Position numbers and translations under genes: made by a program. A stretch of DNA of 64,000 bases. Origin: Escherichia virus TH22. Shown piece after piece: positions 4,779 to 37,536 of the stretch. The stretch lies in sequence record MT446396.1. The stretch is one strand, 5' to 3'. The first letter of the stretch is position 1; each line of letters starts with the position of its first letter. The notes beneath the pieces are model-generated. The model saw only the letters and a list, made by a program, of their open reading frames with translations. It did not search any database and was not told the DNA's origin.

Positions 4779-5785
4779 GAACAGTTATGAAGGGATATTT
4801 TGGGTCCCATCTTTATGGAACAAGTACTCCGGAATCTGATGTCGATTTTAAGGAAATCTTTGTTCCACATCCACGTGATATTCTGTTAGGTACGGCAATG
4901 AATCATACAAACTTGAACACGAATAACACGGCATCCAAAAACACTAAAGACGATGTTGACCACGAGCTTTATAGCCTGAAATATTTCTTTAAACTGGCGG
5001 CTGAAGGTGAAACTGTTGCTCTGGACATGATTCACACTCCGGCTAACCTGGTAGTCAAATCCGATTTACCAGATGTATGGAAGTTTATCCAAGACAACCG
5101 TTCACGGTTCTATACGACCAACATGAAAGCATATTTGGGGTACGTCCGTAAGCAAGCTTCAAAATATGGTGTTAAAGGTTCTAGACTGGCTGCTTTACGT
5201 GGTGTACTGGCAATTGTTAACCAGATTCCTGAACAGTGGGTTGACTACCAAGAAGATGGTTCGACTAAACAACGTCGCACTAAAGTTGAAGATATTAAGC
5301 ATCGTCTCCCAGAGAATGAATTCTGTGAATGGGTATTCCATAACCATGAGAAAACCGGTCCTCAAACGTTTTATACTGTTCTCGGTCGCAAATACCAAAC
5401 TACTTTGTCATTAATCGAGCTTAAGCAATCTCTGAATAAACTTGATGCCGAATATGGTGAACGCGCTCGTAAGGCCGAAGCTAACGAAGGTATTGACTGG
5501 AAAGCTCTGAGCCACGCTTATCGTGCTGGATATCAGTTGAAGGAAATTTATATGACCGGTGACCTTCAATATCCTTTACGAACAGCCCCATTTATCCTTG
5601 AAATCAAACAAGGGCTACATGCTTTTAAAGATGTACAAGCTGAACTTGAAGCAATCGTCGATGAAGTCGAAACCAATGCCATCTGGGCGGCCAAGAACGG
5701 CATGCCCGATAAGGTAGACATGAAGTTCTGGGACAAGTTTGTTGAAGAGGTATATCTTGACAACCACAATTCCTATTATCGTTAA
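4775..5785 (+). CDS. Pol-beta superfamily nucleotidyltransferase (family unresolved)
   Basis: 336 aa; N-terminal GSHLYGTSTPESDVDF (GS...SDxD) nucleotidyltransferase signature, further Asp in VALDMIH; long helical C-terminal region. Confidence 0.6.
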   Translation: MRTVMKGYFGSHLYGTSTPESDVDFKEIFVPHPRDILLGTAMNHTNLNTNNTASKNTKDDVDHELYSLKYFFKLAAEGETVALDMIHTPANLVVKSDLPDVWKFIQDNRSRFYTTNMKAYLGYVRKQASKYGVKGSRLAALRGVLAIVNQIPEQWVDYQEDGSTKQRRTKVEDIKHRLPENEFCEWVFHNHEKTGPQTFYTVLGRKYQTTLSLIELKQSLNKLDAEYGERARKAEANEGIDWKALSHAYRAGYQLKEIYMTGDLQYPLRTAPFILEIKQGLHAFKDVQAELEAIVDEVETNAIWAAKNGMPDKVDMKFWDKFVEEVYLDNHNSYYR

Positions 5786-18832: not shown

Positions 18833-19390
18833 ATGAACGAAATTAAATTAACCAAGAATAACTATGTAAATAATAAAGAGCTTCTGAAAGCTATTTCGGA
18901 GTGGAAACAGAAGCTGAATGCGAACACCGACCCGAATAAAATTATTCGCCAGAACGACGTTATTGGTCTGGCAATTATGCTTATAGCCGAAGGTCTTAGC
19001 AAACGTTTCAACTTCTCCGGATATACCCAATCCTGGAAGCAAGAAATGATTGCAGACGGAATTGAGGCCGCAATAAAAGGTCTTCACAACTTCGACGAAA
19101 CAAAATACGATAATCCACATGCTTACATAACAATGGCTTGCTTCAATGCTTTCGTTCAGCGTATCAAAAAAGAACGTAAAGAAATGGCAAAGAAATATAG
19201 CTACTTCGTCCATAACGTGTATGATTCACGTGATGACGATATGGTGGCTCTGGCTGATGAAACATTTATCCAGGACATCTATGACAAAATGACACAGTAC
19301 GAATCCTCTTTAGTTAAAGCGCCAGGGTCTGATAAGAGCGCCAAAGATAAAGAAGGTGATTTGGATTTTTTATATGGAACATCAATTTGA
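18833..19390 (+). CDS. 55: late-transcription sigma factor gp55
   Basis: 185 aa; near-collinear with T4 gp55 (NYVNNKELL...[36 protein letters not shown]). Confidence 0.9.
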
Positions 19391-27209: not shown

Positions 27210-29924
27210 ATGCAAGAATTTTATTTAACTATCGAACAAATCGGTGACAACCTACTCGAACGATACATTGACAAGAATGGTCATGAACGTGTTCGTGAAA
27301 TCCCCTATGCCCCGTGCCTGTTTATGCATGCCCGCGAAGACCAAGCTGCAAAATATACAGACATCTATAATAAAGGTTGCGTGAAAAAAGAATTCGATTC
27401 CATGCGTGATGCATCCCAGTGGATGAAGCGAATGAATGACATGGGTCTCGAAGCTATGGGTATGGATGACTTTAAACTCGCATACTTGTCCGACCGTTAC
27501 CCGCACGAAATCAAATACGATTCAAGTAAAATCCGTGTGGCTAACTTCGATATCGAGGTGACATCTCCTGATGGGTTCCCTGAGCCGTCTGAAGCACGTC
27601 ACCCTATTGATGCCCTGACGCACTATGATTCGATAGACGATAAATTCTATGTCTTTGACCTTTTGGGCTCACCATACGCCACTGTGGAGCAATGGTCTAT
27701 CGATATTGCTGCTAAGCTGCAAGAAGATGGCGGTGATGAAGTCCCTGAAGAAATCCTGGAAAAAATTGTTTATATGGCTTTCGATTCAGAAGAAGAAATG
27801 CTCCAACAGTATTTGGTATTCTGGAACGAGAAAACTCCGGTTATGTTAACTGGTTGGAACATCGAGAAGTTTGATATTCCATATATCTACAACCGCCTTA
27901 AAAATGTATTTGGTGAAGCTACGGCAAAACGTTTGAGTCCACATCGTCGTACAAAAGTTAAGGTCATTAACAACGGTTTCGGTGAAGAACAAGAAATCGT
28001 TCAGATTCTGGGTATCTCTGTTCTGGATTATCTGGACCTGTATAAAAAGTTCAGCTTCACAAACCAACCGTCTTATTCGTTGGATTATGTTGCGGAATCT
28101 GAGCTGGGTGTTGGTAAACTCCCGTATGATGGCCCGATTTCTAAACTGCGCGAATCAAATCACCAACGGTATATTTCTTATAACATCATCGATGTTTATC
28201 GTGTTGTACAGATTGACCGTAAGCGTCAGTTTATTAACCTTAGCCAGTCAATGGGTTATTATGCAAAAATGCAGATTCAGTCTGTATTCAGCCCAATCAA
28301 AACTTGGGATGCGATTATCTTTAACAGCCTGAAGACTCAAAATAAAGTCATTCCGGAAACCAAATCACATGTTCGTCAATCGTTCCCAGGTGCATTTGTT
28401 AAGGAACCGATTCCGAACGCATACAAATACGTTATGAGCTGTGACTTAACATCTCTGTATCCGAGCATCATCCGACAGATTAACATTAGTCCAGAAACGA
28501 TTGCCGGGTCATTTACACCAGCGCCAATGTACGAATACATCGCAGGAACTGCTGACCGTCCATCTGATACATTTAGTTGTGCTCCAAACGGTATGATGTA
28601 TTTTAAAGATGTTGCGGGTATTATTCCAACAGAAGTCACCAAGGTGTTTAATCAGCGTAAAGAGCACAAAGGTTATATGCTTGCGGCTCAACGTAATGGT
28701 GAACTGATTAAGGAAGCCCTGCGTAATCCAGGAACTGGTACAACCGAGCCTGAAGTTGATTATCGTTATGACTTTGATGATAATATGAAAACAACCTTGC
28801 ATGGTCTGAATCAAACAGTTCTGAATGGTATGTTGTACAAAGCGCAGATGGAAGAAGTTGCAGGCATGACCGCACAGATTAACCGTAAACTGCTTATCAA
28901 CAGTTGTTATGGCGCTCTGGGTAATATCTGGTTCCGTTACTTTGACCTGCGAAATGCAACCGCGATTACATCTTTCGGACAACTTACATTGCAGTGGATT
29001 GAGCGTAAAGTTAACGAATATTTTGATAGTGTTTGTGGTACAAGTGGTGAAACATATGTATTCTATGGCGATACTGACTCCATTTATATCCAGTGCGATA
29101 ACCTGATTAAAAAGGTTGGTGGCGAATCTAAATTCCGCGATACAAACCACCTGGTTGACTTCATGGACAAGTTTGCGAAAGACCGTCTGGAACCAGCAAT
29201 CGATAAAGCTTTCCGTGAGCTGGCTGAATACATGAACAACAAACAGCACCTTATGTTTATGGACCGTGAAGCGATTGCATGTCCTCCGTTGGGTTCTAAA
29301 GGTGTTGGTGGATTCTGGACGGCGAAGAAGCGTTATGCTCTGAACGTGTACGATATGGAAGGCACCCGATATGCTGTTCCGAAACTGAAAATCATGGGTC
29401 TGGAAACTCAAAAGTCGAGTACGCCAAAAGCATGTCAGAAAGCCCTGAAAGAATGTATCCGTCGCATGCTGCAAGAAGGTGAAGAATCTCTGCAGACATA
29501 CTTCAAGGAATTCAATAAGGAATTTAATGAGCTTAACTACATGACAATCGCAGGTGTATCATCGGTTAACAACATCCAGAAATATAATGAGGGTGGTTTC
29601 CCTGGATTTAAGTGTCCGGCTCATATCAAAGGCGTGCTCGCTTACATGCGTGCAACCAAAGGGTTGAAGACTGTTCCACAAATCATGGAAGGGGAAAAGG
29701 TGTATGTGCTTCCTCTTAAAGTTGGTAACCCGTTTGGCGAAACTGTGATTGCATGGCCATCAGGGATTGAACTCCCGATTGAAATTCGTGACCAGGTTCT
29801 GCAGTGGATGGACTACAACACACTGTTCCAGAAGACTTTTGTCAAACCGTTAACGGGGTTCTCTGAAGCAGCAAAGGTTGATTACGAAAAGAAAGCAACT
29901 CTTTTTGATATGTTTGACTTTTAA
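27210..29924 (+). CDS. 43: DNA polymerase gp43 (family B, 3'-5' exonuclease)
   Basis: 904 aa; exo motif FDIEV; polymerase motifs YPSII, YGDTDS. Confidence 0.95.
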   Translation: MQEFYLTIEQIGDNLLERYIDKNGHERVREIPYAPCLFMHAREDQAAKYTDIYNKGCVKKEFDSMRDASQWMKRMNDMGLEAMGMDDFKLAYLSDRYPHEIKYDSSKIRVANFDIEVTSPDGFPEPSEARHPIDALTHYDSIDDKFYVFDLLGSPYATVEQWSIDIAAKLQEDGGDEVPEEILEKIVYMAFDSEEEMLQQYLVFWNEKTPVMLTGWNIEKFDIPYIYNRLKNVFGEATAKRLSPHRRTKVKVINNGFGEEQEIVQILGISVLDYLDLYKKFSFTNQPSYSLDYVAESELGVGKLPYDGPISKLRESNHQRYISYNIIDVYRVVQIDRKRQFINLSQSMGYYAKMQIQSVFSPIKTWDAIIFNSLKTQNKVIPETKSHVRQSFPGAFVKEPIPNAYKYVMSCDLTSLYPSIIRQINISPETIAGSFTPAPMYEYIAGTADRPSDTFSCAPNGMMYFKDVAGIIPTEVTKVFNQRKEHKGYMLAAQRNGELIKEALRNPGTGTTEPEVDYRYDFDDNMKTTLHGLNQTVLNGMLYKAQMEEVAGMTAQINRKLLINSCYGALGNIWFRYFDLRNATAITSFGQLTLQWIERKVNEYFDSVCGTSGETYVFYGDTDSIYIQCDNLIKKVGGESKFRDTNHLVDFMDKFAKDRLEPAIDKAFRELAEYMNNKQHLMFMDREAIACPPLGSKGVGGFWTAKKRYALNVYDMEGTRYAVPKLKIMGLETQKSSTPKACQKALKECIRRMLQEGEESLQTYFKEFNKEFNELNYMTIAGVSSVNNIQKYNEGGFPGFKCPAHIKGVLAYMRATKGLKTVPQIMEGEKVYVLPLKVGNPFGETVIAWPSGIELPIEIRDQVLQWMDYNTLFQKTFVKPLTGFSEAAKVDYEKKATLFDMFDF

Positions 29925-32157: not shown

Positions 32158-32491
32158 TATCGATTTATCTGATTTAGATAATTTCGAGAAAGATGCGGAG
32201 GGAGCTAAGGCTCCTTCTGTGCCTTACTACGAAAAAAGTTTGGAGATTATCCGGCAATCCATGGGAACCGTACGACAGGAAATTCTGTTATCACTCCCTG
32301 ATGGGTCCAATCACATTGTGTACGTAACCGGAATTAAAATTGAACCATCTGGAAAAGTTTCAGTTGATTTCGGCACCCCTTCTGAAGACCGCAAAGCGGA
32401 GCTTGCAGTGCATGTAGAAAAGTGTGTTACAATGCAAATACAAGATGAAATTGATAAGATTAAAATGAAAAAGAGGTGGTGGAAGTGGTAG
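32147..32491 (+). CDS. 40: gp40-like head vertex assembly protein (by synteny)
   Basis: 114-aa ORF between uvsX and 41. Confidence 0.5.
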   Translation: MMNDIDLSDLDNFEKDAEGAKAPSVPYYEKSLEIIRQSMGTVRQEILLSLPDGSNHIVYVTGIKIEPSGKVSVDFGTPSEDRKAELAVHVEKCVTMQIQDEIDKIKMKKRWWKW

Positions 32492-33915
32492 AAACTATTT
32501 TATCCCAGCTACTCTTTAACAAGGAATATTTTGTTAAAGTCTGGCCATATCTGAATAGCACATATTTTGAAAAGGGTCCCGCGAAGACCCTTTTTAATAC
32601 GATTAACGAACACGTAAAAGAATATCAAGCTGTACCAACTAAGACTGCACTTGATATTGCACTTGACAACTCTGACCTTTCTGAAGTCGAATATGAAGGC
32701 ACAAAGAAACTTTTAGGAGTCCTGGCCGATACTCCAGAAGACCAGGAATGGTTGGTTAGAGAAACCGAAAAGTATGTACAGAAGTCTGCGATGTTCAATG
32801 CCACATCCAGGATTATCGAAATCCAGAGTAATGCCGAACTTCCTAAAGATAAACGTGATAAACGAATCCCGGATATCGGTGCTATCCCTGACATCATGCG
32901 TGATGCATTGTCCATCTGTTTTGATTCTGCCCTTGGTCATGACTGGTTAAACGATTACGAGGCTCGATTCCAGACTTATCTGAACAAATCGAAGAAAGTT
33001 CCGTTCCGCATTAACATCCTGAATAAAATTACGAAAGGCGGGGTTGAGTACGGTACAGAGAACGTTTTACTAGCCGGGACGAATGTCGGTAAATCTCTGG
33101 GGCTTTGTTCGTTAGCGGCTGACTATCTTCAGACTGGTCATAACGTTCTTTATATAAGCATGGAAATGGCCGAAGAAGTATGTGCCAAACGTATTGATGC
33201 CAACTTGCTGGATGTATCTCTGGATGATATTGATGAAGGTCATATATCATGGGCGGAATATAAAGCTAAGATGGAAAAATGGCGTGCTTCCGGGACTCTC
33301 GGGACTCTGAAGATAAAACAATATCCAACTGGTGGTGCTCATGCGGATACCTTCCGTGCATTACTGAACGAGTACAAACTGAAGCAAGGGTTTGTACCGG
33401 ATGTGATTATTGTTGACTACCTGGCAATCTGTGCAAGCTCAAGACTGAAAACGTTTACCGAAAACAGTTACGGCCTGATTAAGATGGTTGCAGAAGAACT
33501 TCGTGGTCTGGCAGTTGAGAAAAATGTGGTCTTGTGGACTGCAGCGCAGACAACCAGGGGCGCGAACGTTGCAGCCGAGATTGATATGGCTGACATTGCA
33601 GAATCCTTTGGTATTGCTCACACGGCTGACTTTATGCTGGGTGTTGTTGAGACCGAAGAATTCGCTCAAATGGGGCTGCAGTTAATCAAACAGCTTAAGT
33701 CTCGTTATGGTGATAAGAACTACTATAATAAATTCAAGATGGGTGTTAAGAAAGGTAATCAGCGCTGGTATGAGGTTGATGATGATTCGGCTCCTAAACA
33801 AGGCCCTACGGTTAAAGAAGCCACCGGTGAGATGAATCGCCAGGCCGAAATGAATCGACAAACCAGGGTCAACAGGAGCGACCTGGATGACCTTGCTGCT
33901 CAAATGAAATTTTAA
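32485..33915 (+). CDS. 41: replicative DNA helicase gp41 (DnaB-like)
   Basis: 476 aa from GTG with AAGAGG SD; Walker A GTNVGKS; collinear with T4 gp41. Confidence 0.9.
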   Translation: MVETILSQLLFNKEYFVKVWPYLNSTYFEKGPAKTLFNTINEHVKEYQAVPTKTALDIALDNSDLSEVEYEGTKKLLGVLADTPEDQEWLVRETEKYVQKSAMFNATSRIIEIQSNAELPKDKRDKRIPDIGAIPDIMRDALSICFDSALGHDWLNDYEARFQTYLNKSKKVPFRINILNKITKGGVEYGTENVLLAGTNVGKSLGLCSLAADYLQTGHNVLYISMEMAEEVCAKRIDANLLDVSLDDIDEGHISWAEYKAKMEKWRASGTLGTLKIKQYPTGGAHADTFRALLNEYKLKQGFVPDVIIVDYLAICASSRLKTFTENSYGLIKMVAEELRGLAVEKNVVLWTAAQTTRGANVAAEIDMADIAESFGIAHTADFMLGVVETEEFAQMGLQLIKQLKSRYGDKNYYNKFKMGVKKGNQRWYEVDDDSAPKQGPTVKEATGEMNRQAEMNRQTRVNRSDLDDLAAQMKF

Positions 33916-33925
33916 AATATTTTAA

Positions 33926-33949
33926 AAGGGGCTTACGGCCCCTTTTTCT
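33926..33949 (+). terminator. intrinsic terminator
   Basis: GGGGCTTACGGCCCC hairpin + TTTTT. Confidence 0.65.
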
Positions 33950-33986
33950 TATGTTATAATGACCCTATCAACTACTGGAGAATAAA
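33950..33986 (+). promoter_or_regulatory. early promoter with family-A leader
   Basis: TATAAT 33955-33960 then CTATCAACTACTGGAG. Confidence 0.5.
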
Positions 33987-34304
33987 ATGAAAACTATTGA
34001 TTGCAAGGCGGAATACAAAGTTTATTATCATGGCTCAAGCTCTAATGCTGGAATCCAAAATATGCTTTGCCCTCCTGATGCAACTGGTGTTCTGTCAGAA
34101 GTTGGGCGTAAGAAAAATTTAGGGCGTGTGTTTTTTACTGAAGATATTGGTTTGGCGCGTATCTATGCAGGAAGAGCAGCTCGCTCATATGGAGGAGAAC
34201 CCCGTCTTTATCGTGTGATTGCACCTGTTGACGTGGTTTGTTTAAATGATACTAAAGGCGCAACCGTTTATCACGCCGCCTGGGCCTTCTGTGAGGAAAT
34301 CTAA
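33987..34304 (+). CDS. hypothetical protein with PARP-like HGS / G-x-[VI]-[FY]-F-[AT]-[DE] motifs
   Basis: 105 aa; YYHGSSSNAGI ... GRVFFTEDIGLARIY resembles the NAD-binding signature of H-Y-E class ADP-ribosyltransferases; too short for a full catalytic domain. Confidence 0.4.
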   Translation: MKTIDCKAEYKVYYHGSSSNAGIQNMLCPPDATGVLSEVGRKKNLGRVFFTEDIGLARIYAGRAARSYGGEPRLYRVIAPVDVVCLNDTKGATVYHAAWAFCEEI

Positions 34305-34508
34305 ATGTATAAATTAGAGAACGTAGTGTTTATTGGTTGGTTTGAAAATGGTAATATGTTTACCAAAGAAACCGCGCTGGATGTTAGTGACCAAAATATG
34401 ATTGAATGGGTTACAGTGCAGTATGCAGAAGTGAATAATGCGCTGGTTAAAGCCTTTGTTAATGACAATAAAGTTTTTGAATATGATGCCCGCATTGAGG
34501 AAATTTAA
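34305..34508 (+). CDS. hypothetical small protein (Dmd-like by size/position only)
   Basis: 67 aa in the 41-61 interval where T4 carries dmd. Confidence 0.25.
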   Translation: MYKLENVVFIGWFENGNMFTKETALDVSDQNMIEWVTVQYAEVNNALVKAFVNDNKVFEYDARIEEI

Positions 34509-34748
34509 ATGAATATCACATTAATGAAACCTACCCCTAGTTCTTTTTGGAATAAATCTTTTGGTAAGCATAATATGTTTATCCAACGCACCGTAAGCAG
34601 CTGGGAACTAGTTCTTTCGGAAGACCATGGCGGTTATGAACAAGAATACGTAGAGTTCTTCGAATTTCCTGTGAAACCTACCAAGCGTCAGATTCGTCAG
34701 ACAAAACGCAAATTCCGTAAAATTTATCTGGAAGATGCATTAAAATAG
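34509..34748 (+). CDS. hypothetical protein with basic C-terminal tail (PTKRQIR)
   Basis: 79 aa; tail motif shared with ORF 35901..36122. Confidence 0.3.
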   Translation: MNITLMKPTPSSFWNKSFGKHNMFIQRTVSSWELVLSEDHGGYEQEYVEFFEFPVKPTKRQIRQTKRKFRKIYLEDALK

Positions 34749-34805
34749 TGTACAACAAAGGGATAATGCTGTATATTATCCATATCAACTACTGAGGAGA
34801 TTGAA
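34748..34805 (+). promoter_or_regulatory. early promoter with family-A leader
   Basis: GTGTACA, TATATTAT, CCATATCAACTACTGAGGAG. Confidence 0.5.
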
Positions 34806-35099
34806 ATGAAAAAGTTATTAATCGCGGCAATTCTTACCGTAGCATCATGTGGTACAGCTCCAGTTACTGCTGGACTTGATAAAAACCTTTGTGAGTGGTC
34901 TATGACTGCGGACCAAACTGATGTTGAAACTCAAATTCGCGCTGACATCATGAATATTACTAAACGTGACCGCCCTGATATGGTTAAAGAAGTATCTGAC
35001 CAATTGACTTCTGGTGACGTTATGCAGTATAACTATGTTCTGTATTGCGATGCTTCATTTGACAATAGCAAAATTGTTCAATGGGTTACAGGTGAATAA
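34806..35099 (+). CDS. sp: Spackle-like periplasmic superinfection-exclusion protein
   Basis: 97 aa, signal peptide (LTVASCG); size and position (61.3 slot between 41 and 61) match T4 Sp. Confidence 0.5.
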   Translation: MKKLLIAAILTVASCGTAPVTAGLDKNLCEWSMTADQTDVETQIRADIMNITKRDRPDMVKEVSDQLTSGDVMQYNYVLYCDASFDNSKIVQWVTGE

Positions 35100-35100
35100 A

Positions 35101-35538
35101 ATGATTAACAGAAATTTGGTTATCAAAAAACTTCGTTGTAAAAATCCAAATGCGCAGGCATACAGGGTGTTTTGGAGCGACGAAATTCAATATCTGGGTT
35201 ATTTTCTTGTTGATAGTGATGATAGAATTACGTTTGCTCATAAACTTCTTAACAAAGAATTAAACCATTGGAAAGAACTTATTGCAGTCAAGTCTAAATT
35301 ATTTTCGCGCAATACAATGCACCAATTGGTTTATTTTTTCGCTGATGGTATTCCTGACAAGGTTGAGTTTGAAGGGTTTGAATTTAAAGACATCAACCCT
35401 GACAATGAATTGAATGACAGTATTGTTAATATGGGTATCCCTGGCAAGTACATCAAAAACAGTCTTTTGAAAATTCTGGAAAATCCTGTTTATTCAGTTG
35501 ACGACCAGATTTTTAATGCCTTCATGAAGCGAGATTAG
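35101..35538 (+). CDS. hypothetical protein
   Basis: 145 aa; C-terminus DDQIFNAFMKRD repeated in next ORF. Confidence 0.35.
   Translation: MINRNLVIKKLRCKNPNAQAYRVFWSDEIQYLGYFLVDSDDRITFAHKLLNKELNHWKELIAVKSKLFSRNTMHQLVYFFADGIPDKVEFEGFEFKDINPDNELNDSIVNMGIPGKYIKNSLLKILENPVYSVDDQIFNAFMKRD
35499..35536 (+). repeat. 36-38 bp direct repeat, copy 1
   Basis: GACGACCAGATTTTTAATGCCTTCATGAAGCGAGATTAG; near-identical to 35860..35897. Confidence 0.8.
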
Positions 35539-35539
35539 T

Positions 35540-35899
35540 ATGAGTTATTATAATTTTCTGAATTTTGAACTGGTGAGCAATAATAATGGTAATGCTCACT
35601 ATGAATTTCGTGAGCCCCGTTATAATCAGGCGATTGGTTATATCATCGTTAAAGATGGTGTTATCATAAAGGCTCGTTCGTTTATGACAATGAATGGGCC
35701 TTGTGAAGATAATCGTGGTTATCCATTTGATAAAAAGAACGTACGCGATTGTGCAGTATGGATAACCGGAAACCCTGAAATTGGGGTCATGATATCTACT
35801 GAAGCAAATGACATTCTGGAAGGGGCTTGGGTTAAAGCTCAAGAACCGCCTACTGATATTGATGACCAGATTTTTAATGCCTTCATGAAGCGAGGTTAA
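35540..35899 (+). CDS. hypothetical protein (bracketed by direct repeats)
   Basis: 119-aa ORF ending DDQIFNAFMKRG. Confidence 0.35.
   Translation: MSYYNFLNFELVSNNNGNAHYEFREPRYNQAIGYIIVKDGVIIKARSFMTMNGPCEDNRGYPFDKKNVRDCAVWITGNPEIGVMISTEANDILEGAWVKAQEPPTDIDDQIFNAFMKRG
35860..35897 (+). repeat. 36-38 bp direct repeat, copy 2
   Basis: GATGACCAGATTTTTAATGCCTTCATGAAGCGAGGTTAA. Confidence 0.8.
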
Positions 35900-35900
35900 T

Positions 35901-36122
35901 ATGTTTGTTTTGACCCAATTCTCTAAAGCAATATATAGTTACTCTTGTCAGTGGGAAGTCTTTATTGATACTCCGTCTCCCAAGTATGGAGTTTTTGGAC
36001 GAGTAACTACTCAAGCTTATGTTGCACGACCGACCAAACGTCAGATTCGTAAACTTAAAAAGGCACATCGTCAATTGATTAAAAGAAGGGAACAATATGA
36101 GTGCAATGTGTACGGGCTCTAA
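35901..36122 (+). CDS. hypothetical protein with basic C-terminal tail (PTKRQIR)
   Basis: 73-aa ORF. Confidence 0.3.
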   Translation: MFVLTQFSKAIYSYSCQWEVFIDTPSPKYGVFGRVTTQAYVARPTKRQIRKLKKAHRQLIKRREQYECNVYGL

Positions 36123-36288
36123 GATTTCGGTCTTCCAGATTTTTGAAGAATATGAAATCGTGTCGCAAGACCAAGAAGCAATCCATGTTATCGCTGATGA
36201 TGGTGTTACCTGGATTATTCCGTTGTATCATGAAGACACTTATGAAGTGACTGATGCAAATGGTGATAAAGCTATCTTCGTTGTATAA
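36097..36288 (+). CDS. hypothetical acidic protein
   Basis: 63-aa ORF. Confidence 0.3.
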   Translation: MSAMCTGSKISVFQIFEEYEIVSQDQEAIHVIADDGVTWIIPLYHEDTYEVTDANGDKAIFVV

Positions 36289-36291
36289 ATA
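36284..36291 (+). promoter_or_regulatory. T4-type late promoter core TATAAATA
   Basis: exact TATAAATA 17 nt upstream of a small ORF. Confidence 0.4.
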
Positions 36292-36307
36292 GCGGAAAGG
36301 GGGTGTT

Positions 36308-36475
36308 ATGAAAACATTCAAAGATTTTATCAACGAAGATATGGCTGCCGGTGATGCAGGTGGAAACCCAACTAATATCGCAACAGGTACCACTTCCGGG
36401 GCAGTTGTCAATAAAGGCCCTGAACAAATCCCATCAAAAAAGCGTAAGAATAAAGACGATAAACCTACAGTATAA
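36308..36475 (+). CDS. hypothetical small Gly/Lys-rich protein
   Basis: 55 aa with GGGGTG-containing SD; followed by hairpin; below track cutoff. Confidence 0.3.
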   Translation: MKTFKDFINEDMAAGDAGGNPTNIATGTTSGAVVNKGPEQIPSKKRKNKDDKPTV

Positions 36476-36507
36476 TGGTCCTTCGGGGCCATTGAAATGA
36501 GGAAACT

Positions 36508-37536
36508 ATGTCATATATTGATAGAGAATTTGCAGTCAGAGCTTTATCGTATCAACCACGTTATAGAGAAGTCACCGGGAGCACATTTAAGGCAAACTGT
36601 CGTTGCAAGGTTTGTGGTGACTCCCAGAAAGATTCGCACAAGGCTCGATTCTGGGCGTATACCAATCCGTCTGATGGTGCGGTTTACGTGAAATGTTTTA
36701 ACTGTGACTACTCCACGCATATAAGCAAATACATAAAAGAGTTTGAGCCGGATTTGCACCGGGAATATATGGTTGAGAAGTACAAGGAAAACGCCTTCGG
36801 TCGACAACGTAATGAAGTTGCAGAAGCTCCGAAAGAACAAGAAAAAACTCCGGTTATTGAAGAGCTTGCTTTTTGCGAAAGAATCGATACTTTACCAGAA
36901 GCGCATCCGATAGTTAAGTATGTGAAAAGTCGGTGTATTCCGAGCAATGTTTGGAACCGGTTATGGTTTACAAACAAATGGCCTGCATTAGTTAACTCCG
37001 TTAATCCTGGGACGTATAAGAATGAAACGAATGAACCACGCTTGGTTATTCCTATCTTCAACGGCAAAAAAGAAATCGAATCTTTCCAAGGACGAGCTCT
37101 TCGCAAAGATGCACCACAAAAATATATCACAATCAAAGCTCACCCAGAAGCTTCCAAAGTCTATGGCGTAGACAAGATTGATGAGCGCAAGCGCGTGTGG
37201 GTAATGGAAGGTCCGATTGATAGTTTGTTTATCCCTAACAGCATTGCGATAACCGGTGGAACATTAGCATTGGAAGCCGTTCCTTATGCTGAAACCCGAG
37301 TATGGGTAATGGACAACGAGCCAAGACATCCGGATACGATTAAACGTATGAAGAAGCTCGTTGAAGCGGGTGAAGCCGTTATGTTCTGGGACAATGCACC
37401 ATGGCATACGAAAGACATAAATGAGATGGTTAAATCGGAGGGCGCAACCCCTGAACAAATCGAATCATATATGGCCGATAACATTGCTCAAGGGTTGATG
37501 GCGAGAATGCGACTTTCGAAGTACGCAAAAGTTTAG
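36508..37536 (+). CDS. 61: DNA primase gp61
   Basis: 342 aa; N-terminal Zn ribbon CRCKVCG...CFNCD, TOPRIM-like EGPIDSLF / VMDNEP. Confidence 0.9.
   Translation: MSYIDREFAVRALSYQPRYREVTGSTFKANCRCKVCGDSQKDSHKARFWAYTNPSDGAVYVKCFNCDYSTHISKYIKEFEPDLHREYMVEKYKENAFGRQRNEVAEAPKEQEKTPVIEELAFCERIDTLPEAHPIVKYVKSRCIPSNVWNRLWFTNKWPALVNSVNPGTYKNETNEPRLVIPIFNGKKEIESFQGRALRKDAPQKYITIKAHPEASKVYGVDKIDERKRVWVMEGPIDSLFIPNSIAITGGTLALEAVPYAETRVWVMDNEPRHPDTIKRMKKLVEAGEAVMFWDNAPWHTKDINEMVKSEGATPEQIESYMADNIAQGLMARMRLSKYAKV

Follow-up and report, generated by a model that had tools for sequence, protein, structure and literature searches.

Is a small phage gene that lies between two near-identical gene ends a mobile cassette, or is it an old duplicate? 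The question is raised by a 64,000-nucleotide stretch of Escherichia virus TH22, a T4-like phage (sequence record MT446396.1; the whole stretch is referred to below as the window), in which two adjacent open reading frames (ORFs) on the plus strand, ORF1 (35101..35538; 145 amino acids) and ORF2 (35540..35899; 119 amino acids), are separated by 1 base and end in almost the same sequence. An initial annotation, made from the letters alone, had read the arrangement as the footprint of cassette insertion or excision by short-homology recombination. The analysis reported here makes it probable that ORF1 and ORF2 are tandem paralogues of the AdfA superfamily, in which the conserved DNA for the C-terminus serves at the same time as a joint for recombination.

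A repeat search delimited the shared ends as a direct repeat of 45 nt, 35498-35542 versus 35859-35903, with 42 of 45 positions identical (93%) and a start-to-start spacing of 361; ORF2 together with one repeat copy thus forms a unit of 361 bp, close to the 360 bp first noted. A 31-nt exact core, GACCAGATTTTTAATGCCTTCATGAAGCGAG, occupies 35503-35533 and 35864-35894; no further copy was found in the 64-kb window with up to 3 mismatches allowed, and none of 100 dinucleotide-preserving shuffles yielded a core match. Both copies encode DDQIFNAFMKR, as the initial annotation had stated, followed by D and TAG in the first copy (T1) and by G and TAA in the second (T2); the repeat is slightly longer than the roughly 36 nt described there because it runs past the stop codon into the next ATG. 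Judged from its sequence, the 45-bp repeat is the DNA for the C-terminal peptide of the AdfA superfamily (the tail) plus the Shine-Dalgarno/stop/start junction to the next gene. Given the codon usage of the window, two independent encodings of the tail peptide would be identical across the core with a chance of about 8e-4; therefore, the DNA identity of the copies exceeds what peptide identity alone accounts for.

The tail connects both ORFs with T4 gp61.2, which matches the Pfam family AdfA (PF23813; E 3.8e-137, 454.9 bits), ends in SIDDQIFNAFMNRG and has been identified as anti-DarT factor A (PMC9391042, PMC11257639). With ORF1 and ORF2 as a distant-mode blastn query, 537 phage records were matched, most of them (Tequatrovirus, including T4) at query positions 757-803 only, that is, at the second repeat copy; about 450 further Tevenvirinae records are matched through the tail DNA alone, where 61.2 borders on 61.1. 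The T4 match is the 3' end of gene 61.2, in single copy and with no cassette. IFNAFMNRG is likewise encoded by an RB69 adfA primer given in PMC11257639, and the C-terminal DDQIFNAFM(N/K)RG tail is present in ORF1, in ORF2 and in AdfA of the T4 and RB69 types. Furthermore, the two ORFs lie between sp and 61.1, which is the AdfA slot of the Tevenvirinae anti-toxin-antitoxin (anti-TA) island, a name given to the T4 stretch of dmd, tifA and adfA by Srikant et al. (PMC9391042; the term is also used in PMC11257639).

To what extent the likeness reaches beyond the tail depends on the sensitivity of the comparison. BLASTP of ORF1 against ORF2 aligned the last 27 residues and nothing else. At the profile level, ORF1 belongs to phrog_8539 (E 3.8e-93; no match in Pfam) and ORF2 to phrog_4122 (E 1.1e-52), and nearly the whole phrog_4122 profile also matches residues 111-208 of T4 AdfA (E 1.8e-6). 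The comparison was then made with the last 14 residues cut from all sequences, using HMMER --max. The trimmed ORF2-family profile matched AdfA proteins with E-values of 1e-7 to 1e-4 and found two domains in each of them (approximately residues 29-74 and 113-175); it thus seems that AdfA is made up of two repeats of the ORF2 kind. The trimmed ORF1 profile matched AdfA with an E-value of about 5e-4 and ORF2 proteins with one of about 7e-4, positions 19-44 aligning with positions 19-44, the E-values of about 1e-3 in these trimmed searches being per comparison.

The predicted folds agree with this relationship. AlphaFold2 models of ORF1 and ORF2 (mean predicted local distance difference test scores of 69 and 81, respectively) have a common order of elements, namely five strands, a helix, a strand and then helices, and in both models the tail is a low-confidence helix beyond a linker. 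In Foldseek searches of the BFVD database, the best non-self match of the ORF2 model was the VR25 orthologue of ORF1 (E 3.5e-5, template modelling score 0.60) and, reciprocally, that of the ORF1 model was an ORF2 orthologue (E 5.4e-5); both models matched a Tequatrovirus protein, the ORF2 model also matched an unnamed 212-aa protein that is probably an AdfA, and E-values to relatives ranged from 3.5e-5 to 9.5e-4. A profile search with the ORF2 alignment against 1.84 billion protein representatives returned ORF2 clusters, two fragments and three long proteins matched in multiple stretches, which look spurious; besides these three, no match exceeded 125 aa. A word-indexed search gave 8 homologues of ORF2 and 36 of ORF1, and the superfamily appears to be confined to Tevenvirinae. 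Taken together, the profiles and the predicted models lead us to conclude that ORF1, ORF2 and AdfA probably constitute one superfamily in which ORF1 and ORF2 are anciently diverged tandem paralogues. The initial annotation had itself named ancient paralogy, with homology extending beyond the repeat, as the finding that would speak for gene duplication rather than cassette insertion, and this is partly what was found: in the tail-trimmed profiles, in the order of secondary structure, in the reciprocal Foldseek matches and in the spread of the tandem. The origin would accordingly be an old duplication, with the role of the repeat in recombination mainly one of loss and exchange.

Comparison of relatives, as proposed at the outset, showed that genomes with and without ORF2 differ exactly at the repeat. 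With the tail removed, the ORF1 body matched 85 phage records and the ORF2 body 33, in which ORF2 lay directly 3' of ORF1 in all cases checked. A Tequatrovirus-type ORF2-like protein, also without its tail, matched 299 records by tblastn in addition to the same 33 at lower identity, and tail-less AdfA matched 487 phage records. The locus is thus present in roughly 570 genomes, an ORF2-type gene accompanying adfA in 299 of the 487 and ORF1 in 33 of the 85. Between sp and 61.1, T4 carries adfA only; AR1, teqsoen and the loci L021 and L026-28 (L numbers are our labels for the loci collected) carry adfA and an ORF2-like gene; L017 has an ORF2-like gene only; JS98, VR5, VR26 and about 50 others have ORF1 only; this window, DK-13, VR20, VR25 and UGJNEcP3 have ORF1 and ORF2; and P8 and L024 have ORF1 and ORF2 without the DUF7279 gene that follows elsewhere. 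The Tequatrovirus ORF2-like protein is 38% identical to ORF2 over the tail-less body (44-46% over the whole protein including the tail), and its gene stands directly 3' of adfA in every example examined (AR1, teqsoen, L021, L026-28), with the two tails 358-361 bp apart. Tandems in which an ORF2-type gene follows a gene with the tail are thus found in at least three genera, and since ORF2 orthologues are only about 40% identical across genera, the arrangement is old and no recent insertion in TH22. A scan of IMG/VR with a degenerate tail pattern gave 16 loci, too few for statistics.

Two further arrangements were observed among these loci. The Tequatrovirus-like contig L017 has its ORF2-like gene directly 3' of sp and lacks adfA (1868-2530), in agreement with a published remark that some T-even phages, for example T2, are without adfA; in L029 (2130-2790) the ORF2-like gene is apparently disrupted at its N-terminus.

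It is unlikely, then, that ORF2 is a mobile cassette lately inserted by short-homology recombination, with the repeats as its insertion footprint. Such an origin would suit the presence or absence of the unit exactly at the repeat, the fact that the gene before ORF2 is not always the same (ORF1 in Gaprivervirus and Dhakavirus, adfA in Tequatrovirus) and the precedent of PeSL mini-circles, excised circles that re-insert by homology (PMC2839356). Lateral acquisition is also suggested by UGJNEcP3, whose ORF2 is 94% identical to that of P8 as against 81-89% in the flanks, and whose T2 looks chimeric; gain of ORF2 through the repeat is plausible here, and exchange in the flanking genes could equally account for it. 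However, genomes that lack ORF2, T4 among them, already have one copy of the repeat where adfA or ORF1 ends, so that the repeat was not made by an insertion, and this part of the initial reading falls. ORF2 is moreover a family member with its own ancestral tail, in a tandem too old for a late arrival, and no recombinase, homing endonuclease or promoter/terminator cassette goes with the ORF2 unit. Other signs of a self-mobile cassette were not seen: ORF2 has no Pfam or NCBIfam domain besides the AdfA tail, and no inverted repeats bracket the unit.

The junctions in genomes without ORF2 record how the unit may have been lost. VR26 lacks ORF2, and over sp, the 5' end of ORF1 and the downstream sequence it is 98-100% identical to VR25, the T1 tails of the two being 100% identical. 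At the VR26 junction, a T1-type end (KRD, GAGATTAATATG) is joined straight to the downstream gene; because this T1-specific end is retained, the breakpoint falls within the final 8 nt of the repeat. VR26 alone, of 14 distinct genomes with a single tail that were tabulated, has a T1-type end (KRD, GAGA) directly before the downstream gene. JS98, VR5, IME281 and their relatives (JS98-type Dhakaviruses), from which ORF2 is also missing, keep a T2-type end (NRG, GAGGTTGATATG) resembling the T2 of UGJNEcP3, a tandem-bearing phage of the same genus. In tandem-bearing Tequatroviruses, adfA ends in NKG (AAA) and the ORF2-like gene in NRG (AGA), the two 46-nt tails of teqsoen differing at 1 of 46 nt; T4 adfA, in contrast to the teqsoen and AR1 tandem, itself ends in NRG (AGA), the T2 type. 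In VR26, in JS98/VR5/IME281 and in T4, a single chimeric repeat copy is kept, with breakpoints that differ between the events, as expected of deletion products. Since the homology lies mostly to the left of the diagnostic end codons, most deletions should keep the T2-type end, as is seen. These three kinds of single-copy junction form the pattern that repeated unequal or intramolecular recombination between the tails would give, and loss of ORF2 at the repeat is seen, as far as junction sequences can tell, to have occurred several times in nature, in three groups (VR26, the JS98-type Dhakaviruses and T4). The excision half of the initial reading is thereby upheld, with junctions that fall inside the repeat at differing points.

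The two tails of one genome also resemble each other more than orthologous tails do. Across nine tandem genomes, the mean number of differences between T1 and T2 of the same genome is 3.7 in 46 nt (range 1-6), as against 6.1 (T2) and 9.3 (T1) differences between orthologous tails of the Gaprivervirus/Dhakavirus and Tequatrovirus clades, and UGJNEcP3 uses a TGA stop codon in both tails. This suggests gene conversion or recombination between the tails within a genome, that is, concerted evolution.

These observations bear on a second alternative, pure paralogy, according to which the repeat is a by-product of purifying selection with no role in recombination and ORF2 varies through exchange of flanking genes. 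The invariance of the tail peptide across very divergent members and the mostly synonymous nature of the variation between genera are what it would predict, and exchange does happen widely at the locus (for example, the middle of VR25 ORF1 is 64% identical as against 98% in the flanks). We nevertheless hold this to be quite improbable: VR26, otherwise 98-100% identical to VR25, has a T1-type end at its junction and so requires a breakpoint inside the repeat, T4 adfA carries a T2-type terminal codon, and the identity of codon choice within the TH22 genome has the low chance given above.

Signs of exchange inside the two genes were observed as well. In the segment of ORF1 at 35251-35440, VR25 (L022) and VR7 are 64-65% identical to the window, with 96-98% identity in the 5' end and 93-98% in the last 57 nt before the tail; the conserved N- and C-terminal parts of ORF1 seem to be anchors for allele replacement. 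Some ORF2 alleles (L024 2562-2930; protein P0048) begin with MYIQSDLSYLNFELVKNN or MHIQSDLSYLNFELVKNN, an N-terminus that resembles the Tequatrovirus ORF2-like MHISSELSFLNMEK and is joined to a Gaprivervirus-type body, which suggests recombination between genera inside ORF2.

At which level is the tail maintained? The C-terminus of the superfamily consists of a flexible linker and then (S/D)(V/I)DDQIFNAFM(K/N)(R/K)(G/D), the stop codon, 1 base and the next ATG. ORF1-family members down to 37% identity retain ...YIKNSLLKILExPVYS(V/I)DDQIFNAFMxRx, and ORF2-family members at 44-46% identity retain (S/D)(I/V)DDQIFNAFM(K/N)RG after linkers of varying length, while the differences in tail DNA between genera are mostly synonymous third-position changes (GAT/GAC, CAA/CAG, GCT/GCC, TTT/TTC, AGA/CGA). 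The last 12 nt of the repeat, GAGGTTAATATG, contain the Shine-Dalgarno sequence and start codon of the next gene together with the stop codon, and are conserved from T4 to TH22; T1, which precedes ORF2, has a weakened Shine-Dalgarno sequence in both lineages (GAGA, or AAGG, instead of GAGG). Both tail regions and the T4 tail fold no better than shuffled sequences (z-scores +1.5, +0.4 and -1.3), a scan of 33800-36700 gave no Rfam match at the repeat (the sole match was sub-threshold, at the gene 41 terminator), and no promoter- or terminator-like site was found at 35498-35542 or 35859-35903. Shuffle-level folding energy and the lack of an Rfam family exclude an RNA element at the repeat, and the lack of both site types excludes a promoter/terminator cassette of the PeSL type. 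An invariant peptide, synonymous changes in the DNA and no RNA, promoter or terminator signal point to selection on the peptide, the last 12 nt excepted, and protein-level maintenance of the tail is shown in so far as sequence comparison can show it. That the conserved 45 nt are instead a nucleotide-level element (an RNA structure, a nuclease or regulatory site, or translational coupling), with peptide conservation secondary, is scarcely credible: the conserved final 12 nt and the weakened Shine-Dalgarno sequence in front of ORF2 would fit it, but the folding energies, the lack of Rfam, promoter and terminator patterns, and the mostly synonymous variation of the upstream 33 nt over an invariant peptide do not.

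We therefore return to tandem paralogues with a dual-purpose tail and propose the following course of events. The ORF1/ORF2 tandem would have arisen by an old duplication, and selection on the tail peptide, most likely together with gene conversion or recombination between the tails, would have kept two near-identical DNA copies. As T4-type phages recombine efficiently at short homologies, these copies may provide a ready-made joint: a crossover from one copy to the other would remove exactly ORF2 and one tail (361 bp), and the same joint could let co-infecting phages exchange or stack family members. With the repeat at the gene ends, such events would be gene-precise and leave the ORFs intact.

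Several points weigh against this interpretation. Neither ORF1 nor ORF2 reaches the Pfam AdfA gathering score of 27 bits, the ORF2 match (20.7 bits) covering residues 106-119, that is, the tail only; for this reason, the two are not classed as AdfA proper, and anti-DarT activity of either is an extrapolation. Outside the tail, ORF1 and ORF2 show only weak homology in sequence, and hhalign, with the same shallow tail-trimmed alignments, gave E-values of 0.003-0.03, weaker than those of HMMER --max. The fold argument depends on AlphaFold2 models built from alignments of 8-10 sequences, and part of the Foldseek score is contributed by the identical tail. Whether an event was a loss or a gain we infer from the junction types and the spread of the tandem, and the signal of concerted evolution comes from 9 genomes and a 46-nt segment only, where lineage-specific codon preference could be part of the explanation.

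The proposed mechanism can be compared with known systems. Like ORF1 and ORF2, AdfA (PF23813) occupies the slot after sp and before 61.1 or its neighbours and carries the tail DDQIFNAFMxRG, and ORF2 aligns to each half of AdfA without the tail; in contrast, AdfA is a two-repeat protein of 208-216 aa, whereas ORF1 and ORF2 are single-repeat proteins stacked in tandem. RB69 AdfA binds and neutralises DarT1 in a manner depending on His164, and deletion of T4 adfA has no phenotype against DarTG1, the role of T4 AdfA itself being unclear (PMC11257639). ORF1 and ORF2 are presumably toxin-neutralising counter-defence proteins with specificities unlike that of T4 AdfA, as judged from homology and position. 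For the neighbouring dmd-tifA genes of T4, tandem amplifications and deletions at microhomologies of 6-10 bp have been shown experimentally (Srikant, Guegler and Laub 2022, PMC9391042). These events involve the same island and recombination machinery as loss of ORF2 and, like it, have direct repeats flanking the unit, one copy that stays and breakpoints that differ between events; however, they use fortuitous microhomologies and were observed in the laboratory, whereas the ORF2 events involve a 45-bp, peptide-selected repeat with a 31-nt core, and appear, from natural genomes, to be gene-precise and in frame.

The PeSL cassettes of RB49-type phages undergo modular shuffling and are excised as mini-circles (PMC2839356). 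In them, as presumably at the TH22 locus, short conserved repeats at gene boundaries of plastic regions mediate insertion, deletion or replacement of small accessory genes (Arbiol et al. 2010, PMC2839356; Comeau et al. 2014, PMC4122927), the indels between close relatives are bounded by the repeat (VR25/VR26, UGJNEcP3/JS98, teqsoen and AR1/T4), and excision as a small circle is conceivable for the ORF2 unit too. PeSL elements are non-coding, with an early sigma-70-like promoter and a stem-loop terminator, whereas the AdfA-tail repeat is coding and has no promoter, terminator or hairpin. Trojet et al. 2011 (PMC3157838) describe gp38 adhesins of T-even phages in which conserved glycine-rich coding motifs separate hypervariable segments and make specificity easy to exchange, as here; those motifs lie within one gene and concern host range, whereas AdfA tails lie between whole tandem genes and presumably concern counter-defence specificity.

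The setting of the two ORFs is given in Table 1, the function of TifA being taken from PMC9391042. The phage is of the Gaprivervirus type; Escherichia phages TH55 and UPEC07 match it over this region with 100% identity, and Gaprivervirus DK-13 with about 96%.

Table 1. Coordinates of the genes and repeat copies around ORF1 and ORF2 in the TH22 window
Feature	Coordinates	Strand	Remarks
gp41 helicase	32476-33915		
phrog_2110 ORF (105 aa)	33987-34304		no Pfam match
dmd orthologue (anti-RnlA/LsoA)	34305..34508	+	named dmd in homologous records
tifA (61.4) orthologue	34509..34748	+	DUF7279; phrog_2375 (E 1.8e-34), the PHROG of T4 61.4
sp (spackle)	34806..35099	+	named sp in homologous records and by alignment; conserved left flank of the variable adfA-family slot
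ORF1	35101..35538	+	putative AdfA-superfamily paralogue, phrog_8539; in the adfA (61.2) position directly 3' of sp
repeat copy T1	35498..35542	+	encodes VDDQIFNAFMKRD, then TAG stop, 1 base, ORF2 ATG; weakened Shine-Dalgarno GAGA
ORF2	35540..35899	+	putative single-repeat 'half-AdfA' paralogue, phrog_4122; variable unit
repeat copy T2	35859..35903	+	encodes IDDQIFNAFMKRG, then TAA stop, 1 base, ATG of the next gene; intact Shine-Dalgarno GAGG
second TifA/gp61.4-like gene	35901..36122	+	DUF7279 (Pfam E 3.3e-20), phrog_3272; right flank of ORF2
orf28-like	36097-36288		
61.1	36308-36475		
gp61 primase	36508-37536		

Further features of the island were noted. Just 3' of gene 41, a strong terminator-like hairpin (AAAAGGGGCTTACGGCCCCTTTT) at 33924-33946 overlaps the sub-threshold Rfam match mentioned above; this match, to STnc290 (26.7 bits, gathering score 60), very probably reflects the terminator only. 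Directly 3' of this terminator, at the head of the island, lies the phrog_2110 ORF, whose labels in public records disagree ('clamp loader subunit', 'nucleotidyltransferase', hypothetical) and which is a candidate counter-defence gene. To the right of ORF2, the DUF7279 gene and the orf28-like gene overlap by 26 nt (36097-36122) in different frames, an overlap kept in JS98, VR25, VR26 and UGJNEcP3. P8 (L002, a Yersinia phage; 5110-5125) and L024 (a metagenome contig; about 2920-2935), compared with 35895-36105 of the window, precisely lack the 73-aa DUF7279 gene, and their junction lies at a 6-nt microhomology, AATATG, common to the Shine-Dalgarno/start junctions GAGGTTAATATG and GGGAACAATATG. 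The two DUF7279 paralogues stand in direct orientation and have in common a near-identical stretch of 22 nt (20/22; 34676-34697 and 36029-36050) encoding PTKRQIR, a second instance of paralogues with a conserved coding motif; a crossover between these copies would remove sp, ORF1 and ORF2 and leave a chimeric tifA.

What the tail peptide does can be approached through other C-termini in the window. Those of gp43 (29890-29924; KKATLFDMFDF) and gp55 (19350-19390; ...DLDFLYG) we take to be tails that bind the gp45 sliding clamp. The AdfA tail QIFNAFM and the gp43 tail have a hydrophobic-F-x-x-F pattern in common, a likeness at the level of the motif only; among plus-strand ORFs of at least 50 aa in the window, gp43, ORF1 and ORF2 alone have this pattern in their last 14 residues. 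Bacterial beta-clamp (QL[SD]LF) and PIP-box motifs, compared by eye through their consensus, did not fit the AdfA tail. The variable linker, the predicted free amphipathic helix and the sharing of the tail across widely diverged globular parts fit a short linear docking motif. It is possible, though on balance doubtful, that the tail is a portable linear motif docking AdfA-family proteins to one conserved partner, its DNA doubling as the recombination joint. Candidates for such a partner are a surface conserved among DarT-type toxins and the phage replisome, for example the gp45 sliding clamp. If true, counter-defence would be diversified by a modular system comparable to exons, in which specificity domains are stacked, swapped and dropped.

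Few phage inhibitors of toxin-antitoxin defence have been characterised, and AdfA is one of them. The locus and its mechanism of recombination were already known; new are the stacking of paralogues, the invariant tail and the wide spread of ORF2-type genes that had gone unannotated. The adfA slot would hold a small superfamily (two-repeat AdfA, ORF1-type and ORF2-type proteins) stacked variously in hundreds of T-even-like genomes, all members having an absolutely conserved tail in common. ORF2-type genes have been overlooked in about 330 isolates, where they are usually annotated as hypothetical; ORF1- and ORF2-type proteins are candidates for inhibiting other DarT or other toxin variants, and the tail is the motif to mutate. 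The locus may furthermore provide a natural example of a selected coding motif that serves as a gene-precise recombination joint in a counter-defence island, a coding joint that would complement the non-coding PeSL model and the laboratory microhomology events at the same locus.

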